A stretch of 4,906 nucleotides of DNA from a virus (taxonomy: Duplodnaviria > Heunggongvirae > Uroviricota > Caudoviricetes). A program made the position numbers. Position 1 is the stretch's first letter. Each line of letters opens with the position of its first letter. The stretch lies in IMG/VR virus record IMGVR_UViG_2541047439_000021, one strand, 5' to 3'. Positions 1-3,000 of this stretch are shown in pieces.

Positions 1-3000
1 TCATCCACGGCAGTGGCACCACACGTCAAACATTCGTTTCACAACTTCACGGCAGTAGAAGCCGTCGACATCACGGGTCAGGTCGTAGCGATTGCCGAAT
101 GTCTTGCGAACCCAGAACTCAAAAGCCGTATGCATGTATCACCTCCGTTGCATTGCGCGTAATTTTTTCAGGCGCATTTCCTGCTCAGTGCCCGCCAGAA
201 TTTTGCGGTACTCCTGTTGGTCAATATGTTCGAACAGGTTGTTGAACTCACCAATGCGTACCCGTCCGGAGCGCCCGTCCATGCGTCGAAAGAACACTGA
301 GTGCTGAGTACTGCGAGTAATCACCACAGGGTATCCGGCTCTGTCCGTGTATATCTGACCACGTTGAATCAGAGCGAACATTCCTTTATCCCCAGCGGAA
401 AAGCGAATACAGAATAAATGCCACCGCTATTGCAACTCCAACTGCGGTGAATGCTTCAGGCCAATTCATCATTTCACCTCCTGCGGCGGCTCCGGTAGCG
501 GCATCCAGTGGGTTACTTTCGATGCCGGTTCTTCCCCATTGTCAGTAACTGCCCACCATTTGTTTCTCGAACAATCGTAATACCCTTCGAAGGTATCGCA
601 CTCAGTCCAGCCGTAAGACTTCCCCCAACACCAAACATACTGTTTATCGTTCGGCATTCGCTCACTACAGCTTATCCAACCATCCGGAGTTACCGGAGAG
701 TTGCCAGCCTTGCGCATGGCAATCTCCATGATTTCAACCATATCTCCTGGTGGAATTTTACAATGCTGACCAATATGCCTCTGCTGCCTGGCATATTCGA
801 GGATGTGCTCCAGCTTGATACGATTAATCATGATTTATCTCCCTGAAGCATGGCTTCGCGGCAGTCGTTCCAGCCTTCAGCATAATCACTATACGCAAGA
901 GGCCAACCGTTTCTGTATTCACGCGGCAACTTATCAGGCACTACCAGCGCTGGCGGCGCGGAGAATAGTGGTTTAGGTGATATTTCCGCACGTTTTGCGT
1001 ATGCTTCAACTGTGTCAGGGTTAAACAGGATTATGTTTTCACCGCATTCCCACGCTATCGGTTCTGCTTCCAGCGATGCCAGTGCAATTTCATAAGCACG
1101 GCGCTCAATATTGTCTCGAACGTCCAAGCTGCCTATGCGCTCTTTGATTTCTTTAATCAGTTCTTTGTCGGTAATAGTGGTCATGCCGCGTTTCCTTCTT
1201 TCTTATTAACAATTACACCGTCATATATTTCATTAAGGTGCCCTCTCAACTCCATGCGCCTTAATGCAGACAACATGTAATCGCATTCAACCTGCTTATT
1301 TCCAGTAAATGGCTTATCGTCAGGATTACCCCAACAGCAATTACCCTTGGGCCACCCATGTACTTTCCGTACTCTTCCGTTAACAACGTGAAGTAATCCC
1401 CAGCCAGGTGGTAAATCCTCAATTGAAATAATTCCCGGCTCACTAATAAAGAATCGCCAGTCGCCCATTCCAAGAGACGGATTTTTACGAAAACGCTTTT
1501 TTCTATCTGCCAACAAGTCAGCACGAGAACATTTCGCCAATCAGGCATGATGCTGAATTTCTGAATCCCATAGCATCTGGCTGTTCTCCGGTACTGGTTA
1601 CAGCTATAAAGCGGTCATGAAAACAAACCTTGAAACCGTTGCGCTTAAGGAACTTGTACGCAATCTGACAGAGTTCGCGGTGTGTTAACGCCATATCACT
1701 CTCCTTTGATGCGAATGCCAGCAAGCCAGTTTCTTATGCCGATATATTCAGCGTTCCTGAAACCGCTTTTTACATATATAAATGGCAAGCGAAGATTGTG
1801 ACCATTGACTGCCAGGTAGTCTTTACAACCCTGTTCGGTGAAACAGCAGGTAACGAATTCATCAATATCTTTCACAGCAACGCGCCGCCATTTTTCTGGT
1901 GGCTCTCGAAAGTTTTCATGAAGTAGCTCGAGACGACGACTATGGCGTTTATTGGCTTCATTGCCATCTTCGTCAACCCAGACAATCCGGTCATGGTCAT
2001 AATCAGCATCAACAGCGATTTCGCGCTTTTGATACACACAAAACATGGGATCTGACGTTATTCGATTGTCCTGTGTTCGAATATTTTCACCGATGATGCC
2101 AAACGAATCTGGTGCAGATTTTGTCTGCATCTCTTCGATACGTTCAGCCATCGCAGCACACTCTTCAAAGTTGCTTAATGCTTTTCGCTCCCATTCGGCG
2201 CATTGTTTTTCCAGTTCTGCTATGCGCTTACTTCCATCCGCGATTACTCCCTCGTAATATTCACGCTGCTCGTTGAGTTTTGATTTTGCTGCTTCAAGCT
2301 CAACACGCAGCTTCCCAACCGTAAGCGCAATCTCCTCGTTCTCCTGGTCGCGGCGTTTGATGTATTGCTGGTTTCTTTCCCGTTCATCCAGAAGCGCCAG
2401 CGCAACATTTGGATTAAAGGCAGCAATAAATTCAGCGTTTGCATAAGCCTGAACATCTGTTTCAACCAGGCAGTTAACATGACATTCCGCAATCACACCA
2501 CCGGGTTCTCCTTTCCATTTTTGGCAAACAAAAACTCCTGTTAAATTGCCGTGCTGGTTAACAGATGTATGCCCTACGATGTAGCTTCCTTTAGTTGCTT
2601 TCTCTGCCTTTTCACGCAGTGCCTGATAGTCAATCTTGCTCATTTTTCTCTTCACTCCGGTATACAAGGATTACTACGCCCCCTCTGCTAATTGCGCGAG
2701 CTGGATCCCCTGGTTCCATGCCGTCAATACCGAAGGCTTCGAAAAATGCATCTATTGCCTTTTGGCGTTGCTCCTGCTTACGGCGTTTATTCCATTTTTT
2801 CATGAACAACAGTGACAGCCATCGTCCGCTGCAGAACATGATGTAGAAATAACCAAGGAGCGCTAGGCCGGTGTTCAGGGCTGTATCGATCGTTATCGTG
2901 GTGTTGATGTTCACTTCACACCTCTCTGTTTGTTGATAAGTTCAATATCCTGCTGGCAACTGGCGCAAGCTCTGCATCCACGAACAGCCAGGCGTCGCCG

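Follow-up and report, generated by a model that had tools for sequence, protein, structure and literature searches.

Can an open reading frame (ORF) of fewer than 30 codons, squeezed between two larger prophage genes, be a gene in its own right and, if so, what might its product do? The question is raised by a locus in a 4,906-nucleotide (nt) stretch of DNA from a tailed phage (Caudoviricetes; IMG/VR record IMGVR_UViG_2541047439_000021), which as a whole is hereafter called the window. An earlier note on this DNA had pointed to a hydrophobic micro-ORF of 28 amino acids (aa) at 386-472, and the ORF listing indeed places it there, on the minus strand (MMNWPEAFTAVGVAIAVAFILYSLFRWG). Comparison with its homologues leads us to conclude that this micro-ORF is very likely to be a real translated gene. 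The explanation that best covers the findings as a whole, which we hold with moderate confidence, is that it is a genuine accessory gene of lambdoid, Shiga toxin (Stx)-type prophages, which would encode a single transmembrane helix of 27 residues, be translated by coupling to the preceding gene, and act by helix packing.

Anatomy and start codon of the micro-ORF

The micro-ORF and its translation signals are as follows.

386..472, minus strand: micro-ORF from the first ATG, 28 codons plus TAA; the exact peptide is GenBank ASL58468.1
386..469, minus strand: cistron that is probably the true one, starting at the second ATG and encoding 27 aa, MNWPEAFTAVGVAIAVAFILYSLFRWG, as suggested by the length of the homologues; GenBank ETI78407.1 has this form
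474..482, minus strand: Shine-Dalgarno sequence AGGAGGTGA, inside the last codons (Q-E-V-K) of the upstream DUF551 gene
469..472, minus strand: ATGA stop/start overlap, a putative site of termination-reinitiation coupling

The coding strand has AGGAGGTGAA-ATG-ATG-AAT-TGG at the junction. The TGA stop codon of the DUF551 gene (471..469) overlaps the first ATG (472..470) as ATGA, exactly as described in the earlier note, and the second ATG (469..467) as TGATG. At the other end, the micro-ORF stops at TAA (388..386) and the ATG of a DUF4222 gene follows 4 nt further on. The ideal spacing of the ribosome-binding site that had been proposed holds for the second ATG, which lies 7 nt from the end of the AGGAGG core and yields the 27-aa product, but not for the first, where the distance is a short 4 nt. 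In the homologues, a single ATG aligns with the second ATG of the window, as judged by its 7-nt distance from GGAGG and by the peptide alignment. The product in the window is therefore most likely the 27-aa form (28 aa if the first ATG is used).

With 87 ORFs of at least 20 aa in the window, a 28-codon ORF does not by itself exceed chance expectation. Bare length being uninformative, the case depends on comparative evidence, and it is conservation that supplies the above-chance signal.

Two ways of fusing the ORF to its upstream neighbor were considered and rejected. A programmed -1 frameshift is not indicated, as the overlap comes without a slippery heptamer (X XXY YYZ) in the junctions GGTGAAATGATG and GGTGAATCAATGACC. 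Likewise, the peptide appears to cluster with DUF551 proteins of 121 aa, which might have suggested a fusion, only because partial entries were chained together; those proteins lack the peptide.

Conservation and coding signature

A tblastn search of 50,697 phage records with the peptide identified homologues in 99 records, at 48-100% identity, among them 933W, VT1-Sakai (CP-933V), YYZ-2008, ArgO145, and many other lambdoid phages. In the ten homologous loci that we read directly, the ORF always has 27 codons, one ATG, and an ATGA overlap with the stop codon of the preceding gene. The family has a fixed length of 27 aa and the consensus M-x-WPEAF-x3-G-x-A-x-A-x-A-x3-YSICRWG, as illustrated by the alleles of 933W (MTWPEAFANVGTVMAVVLVVYSICRWR), ArgO145 (MTWPEAFTTVGIAMAVALVVYSICRWG), WGPS2 (MTWPDAFAIVGVAMSIALIVFAICRWG), and PhiR12 (MSWPDAIVTLGMVFAAAFVVYSICRWG). 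Near-invariant residues are M1, W3, P4, E/D5, A6, G11, A13, A15, A17, Y/F21, S22, I23, C24, R25, W26, and G27, and hydrophobic positions 8-10, 12, 14, 16, and 19 interchange I, V, L, M, F, T, and A.

To collect further loci, we used a degenerate pattern that constrains codons 1-6 and 25-28 only, leaving 18 codons free. It has one match in the window, where none is expected by chance, and further matches in >120 IMG/VR contigs and at 5 loci among contigs representing one genome per species. All 136 pattern matches are free of stop codons in the 18 unconstrained codons, and P4, G11, A15, A17, Y21, S22, I23, C24, R25, and G27 are conserved although they fall outside the constraint of the search pattern. 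Pooling the loci yields 60 unique DNA alleles, which encode 39 peptides. When one genome per species was scanned with a strict pattern, E. coli and Shigella flexneri alone were returned, bar one contaminant contig. The latter is a 431-bp 'Xanthomonas pisi' contig (L015, NZ_JPLE01000323.1) made of a 933W-type micro-ORF and hok/sok sequence, which is almost certainly E. coli phage contamination of the assembly.

Variation among the 60 alleles is that of a coding sequence. Mean minor-allele frequency is 0.099, 0.066, and 0.221 at codon positions 1, 2, and 3, respectively; this 3>1>2 order is the classic coding pattern, and the strongest constraint at position 2 is as expected for a predicted transmembrane segment. 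Nei-Gojobori ratios of non-synonymous to synonymous substitution (dN/dS) are 0.09-0.61 in 15/15 pairs of six divergent alleles. The non-synonymous share of differences from the consensus is 0.46, compared with 0.69 ± 0.02 when the changes are placed at random, and 0/2000 simulations are as low. Conservation with synonymous-biased substitution, the check that the earlier note had proposed, is therefore seen, along with a fixed length in divergent relatives. In the copy of strain 2013C-4538, which is 96.4% identical, all three substitutions (3/3) are synonymous.

The most distant homologue comes from a low-GC background. When we queried 1.84 billion representative proteins with the 30-aa window translation, we obtained 14 matches, 12 of which were retrieved; all 12 belong to the same small family or are miscalled/extended versions of it, with no link to a larger protein family (P0022, 1132 aa, and P0032, 1423 aa, are not among the 12). 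A 30-aa homologue, MNITNWPEAFTYIGCAFAIAIIFYSMFRWG, lies on metagenomic contigs L304 (4001..4093) and L427, which have 27-29% GC, where it has its own AGGAG site and fits tightly between two genes. Its peptide is 69% identical to that of the window, with proportions of synonymous (pS) and non-synonymous (pN) differences of 0.76 and 0.21, i.e. synonymous sites are saturated. Between the copies on the two contigs, three changes are synonymous and one exchanges I and V. That the peptide is kept at saturated synonymous divergence is hard to explain except by selection on the peptide. As a side observation, a 549-aa kinase-like gene neighboring this homologue is most similar to genes of uncultured phages of 460-595 kb.

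Intact and decayed copies

The earlier note had reasoned that stops or frameshifts in close relatives that keep the flanking genes would speak against a gene. We therefore drew samples anchored on flanking sequence alone, not conditioned on the ORF. A DUF551 C-terminal anchor (CCGCCGCAGGAGGTGAA) gave 135 matches, and 70/75 copies of the micro-ORF found behind it are intact, the others being four decayed remnants with a frameshift and a ~24-nt deletion and one copy cut by a rearrangement. The remaining matches have unrelated genes in the slot (56) or lie too near a contig end to be read (four). Looking upstream from an anchor at the start of DUF4222, 111/120 copies are intact, eight belong to the same remnant lineage, and one has a 1-nt insertion. 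With ~92-93% of flank-anchored copies intact, the outcome favors a real gene. In a broadly drawn set of complete E. coli genomes, intact copies occur in E24377A, p23AR0151A, AR_0015, TUM13770, and W24.

Lesions do exist. The copy in GN02100 has a 1-nt deletion, the same as in phage 689R5, that in YC21-F17 has a stop at codon 26, and in Shigella phage POCJ13 a TGG codon has become TAG. The decayed remnant, ATGATGCTTGGCCTGAAGTATTTTATGTAATTGGTATTGCTATATTTTTATCTGGGGATAA, lies between DUF551 and DUF4222 (L146, L156, L206, L223, and others), with several different upstream variants. Because this lineage keeps both neighbors, the micro-ORF can go without their loss, and because decayed copies persist in some phages, it is dispensable. 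Upkeep in >90% of copies despite dispensability is as expected of an accessory phage gene.

The slot itself is occupied differently elsewhere. In other IMG/VR phages found with the DUF551 anchor (e.g. L188), the same position after DUF551, with the same kind of stop/start overlap, holds different small hydrophobic ORFs, such as MNKCNALLYAMVIGFGLAAGIRVYITWESLINLAWSAIRG (40 aa) and MDSFAKYTIIDWIAFLQVLLIWFYMAYRSGQW..., which may be functional analogues of the micro-ORF.

Genomic contexts

The coupling to DUF551 that had been proposed agrees with the overlap and the Shine-Dalgarno site in the window, but it is not specific to DUF551, for ATGA also joins the micro-ORF to Ea22-like, EaA-like, and other genes. 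Of 119 unique contexts, 110 show the stop/start overlap (ATGA or TGATG), and in 116 a Shine-Dalgarno core lies 4-20 nt upstream. The upstream proteins end in C termini of unrelated classes (...EPPQEVNQ, ...ISVEDILR, ...NIEQEVNR, ...AGIGVEVK, and ...LKKKGMNQ). The upstream genes in named phages are the following.

VT1-Sakai and PhiR12: DUF551
933W: 156-aa hypothetical protein
ArgO145 and PhiR49: 114-aa 'ACLAME 31' protein
TH18: EaA protein
WGPS2: Ea22-like protein

The map position changes as well, from between exo and xis/int in CP-933V to the wrbA-proximal end in 933W and the nin region, upstream of hokD, in E24377A. Considering these three positions and the varied upstream genes, the micro-ORF behaves as a small, mobile cistron, invariably attached to the 3' end of some other gene.

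Downstream, DUF4222 starts at +4 in 57/119 contexts, and in 22/119 the micro-ORF is followed by a type I toxin locus, hok/sok (hokW/hokD), that has a promoter of its own, including 933W (L004), E24377A (L302), plasmid p23AR0151A (L303), and L008; the hok promoter starts a few bases past the micro-ORF stop. This adjacency may reflect linkage or functional pairing. Other sequence follows in ~40/119 contexts, many with strong hairpin-plus-T-run terminators right at the stop. Since the micro-ORF often precedes a terminator or a separate hok/sok locus, it is not merely a relay for a downstream gene.

Prevalence and annotation

As assessed by blastn of the 84-nt ORF, 1555/5426 complete E. coli genomes (~29%) carry the micro-ORF, at 2838 places in total, with up to 7 per genome and 110 on plasmids. 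It is thus often multicopy in E. coli and is carried by reference Stx phages (933W, VT1-Sakai/CP-933V, YYZ-2008, and ArgO145). In CPS-53, the one K-12 prophage examined, yfdS (DUF551) is followed directly by yfdT and the micro-ORF is absent.

The earlier note had suspected that such a gene is routinely missed, and the annotations agree: the interval is unannotated by RefSeq/PGAP in every record inspected (EDL933, YYZ-2008, 933W, E24377A, and others), and also in VT1-Sakai. A few GenBank submitters annotate it as 'hypothetical protein' (ETI78407.1, 27 aa; ASL58468.1, 28 aa). When a large protein database was queried with a 40-aa read-through, the sole matches were two 'partial DUF551' miscalls, and gene callers therefore almost never emit the micro-ORF. 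Family libraries were similarly silent. The peptide has no match in Pfam, PADLOC, or PDB sequences; PHROGs gave two families of unknown function at non-significant E values of 0.019-0.085; and the best NCBIfam model, KdpF TIGR02115, scored 14.7 bits over 12 residues against a cut-off of 26.85. Full-text literature searches with peptide strings returned nothing relevant, and the Phi24B exo-xis study leaves the micro-ORF unmentioned. Absence from RefSeq/PGAP and family libraries makes it invisible to transcriptomic, proteomic, and mutant studies of the early regions of Stx phages. The locus also offers an example for better small-ORF annotation rules, which could combine coupled ATGA starts with cross-allele conservation.

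Predicted product and topology

The suggestion that the peptide is essentially one transmembrane (TM) helix is supported by its hydropathy. Residues 6-24 have a mean Kyte-Doolittle hydropathy of ~2.3 in the window (calculated by hand) and of 1.38-2.76 across all alleles, and this ~19-residue hydrophobic core is sufficient for one membrane span. We consider it likely that the product is a membrane peptide.

Its synthesis can be pictured from the anatomy of the junction, which in sequence displays both a stop/start overlap and a Shine-Dalgarno site inside the upstream coding sequence, as looked for in translational coupling. Ribosomes ending the preceding cistron (DUF551 here) would stop at the TGA that overlaps the ATG and re-initiate there, aided by the GGAGG site within the last codons of that cistron. 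The peptide would hence be co-produced with the early 'ea' operon. It would then insert into the inner membrane in an N-out/C-in orientation, with the acidic N-tail (M-x-W-P-E) in the periplasm, helix 6-24 across the membrane, and R25-W26-G27 at the cytoplasmic face. This topology is suggested by the charges, as the peptide has a single acidic residue (E/D5), located in the 5-residue N-tail, and a single basic residue (R25), located after the helix. It is also suggested by analogy with the Pf3 coat protein, which has 44 aa, forms part of the virion structure of a filamentous phage, and is inserted by YidC with its N terminus out and C terminus in. The two share a short acidic N-tail, one hydrophobic helix, and R-W right after the helix (GIRWIK in Pf3; ICRWG in the micro-ORF). 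Unlike the coat protein, the micro-ORF product has 27 aa and is an accessory protein of temperate phages with tails; the likeness is one of design rather than of proven homology.

Once inserted, the helix may pack against other TM helices by means of its invariant small residues (G11, A13, A15, and A17) and the conserved termini. The packing partner could be a host or phage inner-membrane protein that is thereby modulated, or further copies of the peptide. Of the roles that the earlier note had listed (toxin, modulator, exclusion), the findings point to none in particular. A 27-residue peptide with near-invariant termini is an easy experimental target, which could reveal a host membrane process manipulated by temperate phages.

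Evidence to the contrary and rival explanations

Several observations weigh against a translated gene for a helix-packing membrane peptide. The alleles share ancestry, and the counts from the simulations of random placement are therefore not true p-values. Purifying selection on the hydrophobic core is only moderate (pN/pS 0.43), and the wobble-aligned antisense frame, which is mostly stop-free, has a similar pN/pS of 0.37; on its own, the pN/pS test is weak for 27 codons. About 7-8% of flank-anchored copies are decayed or frameshifted, including the persistent remnant lineage. The peptide is absent from the accessible part of the supplements of the Enterobacteriaceae microproteome study (PMC11188072). 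It is likewise absent from the supplements, as far as these were accessible, of the Sakai ribosome profiling (Ribo-seq) study of small genes. Prophage early genes are silent under the usual profiling conditions. Finally, no single conserved helix face is detectable (variability moment p = 0.62), which leaves one specific partner interface without positive support.

We attribute the low antisense pN/pS to mirror constraint and to the codon composition of a TM segment, in which NTN and GCN codons give no antisense stops. The plus-strand frame concerned is open for 68 codons (345..548), antisense to the start of DUF4222, the micro-ORF, and the end of DUF551. Its first start codon is a GTG at 447, so that just ~8 of the 28 codons of the micro-ORF are overlapped. 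An antisense gene at 345..548 was rejected as coding, being a mirror frame with a late GTG start whose openness results from the codon composition of the sense genes.

Conservation along the helix has a period of ~2 residues, not 3.6, and the small residues therefore form two ridges (11/15 and 13/17). On sequence grounds, this arrangement fits either sandwiching within a partner protein or self-association. That the peptide acts as a modulator by helix packing is a tentative proposal, but modulation of a larger membrane protein seems to us more probable than the action of an oligomeric toxin that damages membranes.

Such a toxin, whether type I-like or a minimal holin, is the rival that survives best, although we judge it unlikely. 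It would self-assemble through GxAxAxA into oligomers that depolarise the inner membrane, and could serve in host shut-off, lysis timing, abortive infection, or exclusion. Size and composition resemble what is generally known of the TisB, DinQ, ShoB, and Ibs peptides, and the conserved small residues alternate on two helix faces, which suits self-packing. More broadly, type I toxins (Hok/Gef, TisB, DinQ, ShoB, Ibs, Ldr) are also very small, hydrophobic, and borne on mobile elements, and a hok/sok locus lies directly downstream in the 22/119 contexts mentioned above, among them 933W and E24377A. On the other hand, this neighbor has its own promoter and is found in a minority of contexts only. 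Whereas the micro-ORF has the size and hydrophobicity of a type I toxin, neither an antisense RNA antitoxin with a promoter nor an independent transcript with a restraining leader was found. Indeed, no promoter-like or terminator-like sites and no Rfam families were detected within or opposite 386..472, in consensus scans that are weak and whose negatives are not proof of absence. Also unlike known type I toxins, to which it has no sequence similarity, the micro-ORF lacks a structured leader, has a strong, exposed Shine-Dalgarno site, and is probably coupled to an ordinary upstream cistron. The lack of a PADLOC match and the presence of up to 7 copies in one genome argue against a toxin as well.

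In a second rival, translation matters but the peptide does not: the ORF would be a ribosome relay that feeds DUF4222, 4 nt on, or blocks Rho-dependent polarity, its C-terminal TGG-GGA being the Shine-Dalgarno site of the next gene. The tight fit in the window, with the ATGA overlap before the ORF and a 4-nt gap after it, and the +4 start of DUF4222 in 57/119 contexts are in its favor. We nevertheless find it very improbable, since specific residues are kept at the amino-acid level with synonymous-biased change, since RWG and the 27-codon length are kept even where a terminator, and no gene, follows, and since the low-GC homologue retains the peptide though most silent sites differ.

Equally improbable is a conserved DNA or RNA junction, e.g. 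a recombination linker between lambdoid modules, that is open fortuitously, or a chance ORF: a 5' end (ATGACCTGGCCTGAAGCATTC) highly conserved in nucleotides at mosaic boundaries between differing modules, the skipping of the ORF by gene callers and PGAP, and the existence of broken copies would suit it, but against it stand the 3>1>2 variability, the absence of stops from 18 unconstrained codons in 136 pattern matches, the fixed length and conserved Shine-Dalgarno sequence, the conservation of the peptide across backgrounds of 50% and 29% GC, and the lack of an Rfam family or of a predicted terminator or promoter near the ORF.

Relation to known small proteins

Returning to a modulator of a larger membrane protein, the closest models are the small single-pass inner-membrane regulators of E. 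coli (AcrZ, MgrB, MgtS, KdpF, CydX, and PmrR), which have <50 aa and bind larger membrane proteins. Like these, the micro-ORF product has <50 aa, one predicted TM helix, and no enzymatic domain, and was missed by annotation. By analogy, binding to a larger membrane protein would be its most likely mechanism. It differs in having no sequence relationship to them (KdpF TIGR02115 is below cut-off), and whereas the AcrZ/MgrB-type regulators are chromosomal core genes with their own regulation, the micro-ORF is prophage-borne, mobile in position, and probably coupled to the preceding gene.

A stronger proposal, which we regard as quite unlikely, is that the micro-ORF founds a widely mobile family of phage membrane effectors, each of 27 residues and all directed at one specific conserved target. 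Under this proposal, candidate targets could include an inner-membrane component required by competing phages to bring in their DNA (superinfection exclusion) or a host transporter or protease complex. If true, WPEA...G.A.A.A...YSICRWG would be a minimal TM 'inhibitor' motif, kept from E. coli Stx phages to contigs of 27-29% GC.

Host modulators of the lambdoid early operons, namely Kil, CIII, DicB, Orf63, and the TraR-like Orf73, are soluble (PMC3961180, PMC10869804, PMC9239242). The micro-ORF shares with them its location in the accessory early 'exo-xis / ea' region, its small size and dispensability, and, probably, the targeting of host proteins during induction. In contrast to these proteins, its product is a predicted integral membrane helix, and such an ORF is undescribed in that region. 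'The Cryptic Bacterial Microproteome' (PMC11188072) catalogues clusters of intergenic hydrophobic small ORFs in Enterobacteriaceae and assigns them no function; like the micro-ORF, these are hydrophobic, lack both annotation and a Pfam domain, and show purifying selection. The micro-ORF is a previously uncharacterised gene of an ordinary kind, without a curated family, that stands out by its prevalence in Stx phages and its extreme conservation for its size.

Gene neighborhood of the window

The window covers the accessory early ('ea', exo-xis-like) region of a lambdoid Stx-type prophage, with its genes on the minus strand. Apart from the micro-ORF, the ORF listing and Pfam searches identified the following.

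3809..3180, minus strand: AntA-type antirepressor (ORF listing and Pfam)
3132..2911, minus strand: TraR/DksA zinc finger (ORF listing and Pfam)
2914..2630, minus strand: DUF4752 (ORF listing and Pfam)
2667..1696, minus strand: Ead/Ea22-like (ORF listing and Pfam)
between Ead/Ea22-like and DUF551, minus strand: several hypothetical ORFs (ORF listing)
469..831, minus strand: DUF551 protein, 120 aa, the upstream cistron of the micro-ORF (Pfam PF04448, E 7.8e-19; RefSeq-annotated)
139..381, minus strand: DUF4222 protein, 80 aa, the downstream cistron (Pfam PF13973, E 9.3e-16)
135..1, minus strand: 44-aa ORF (ORF listing)

No complete RefSeq E. coli genome contains at least 80% of the window in one stretch. 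The element is a mosaic, its left part resembling CP-933V/VT1-Sakai and its right part Sp5/933W; positions 300..900 are 100% identical to CP-933V/VT1-Sakai-like sequence. At 1181..1724 (minus strand), two overlapping ORFs without a Pfam match, of 68 aa (1724..1518) and 119 aa (1540..1181), look like a single gene broken by a frameshift.

At the right end, a short ORF (4365..4427, minus strand) resembles the N terminus of wrbA in its first 18 residues (MAKVLVLYYSMYGHIETM), and the start of ymdF lies at 4799..4906 (plus strand). Both identities were read from translations, with annotation support for ymdF only ('general stress protein'). Together, they suggest a prophage/chromosome junction at wrbA.

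Two further features lie between this end and the early genes. A clear match to the Rfam small RNA (sRNA) family sRNA-Xcc1 (RF02221) at 3850..3938, minus strand (69.1 bits, with a gathering threshold of 53; E 1.5e-11), is placed between a sigma-70-like promoter (4057..4028, minus strand, TTGACA-18-CATACT) and the AntA antirepressor gene, and could be a leader or sRNA of the AntA operon. At ~4175..4258, we noted by eye a non-coding tandem repeat of ~31 bp (tttggggcactattggggcaaaatgtggttg, ~2.7 copies), flanked by prophage genes on one side and the wrbA-like fragment on the other, which could be an array of protein-binding sites.

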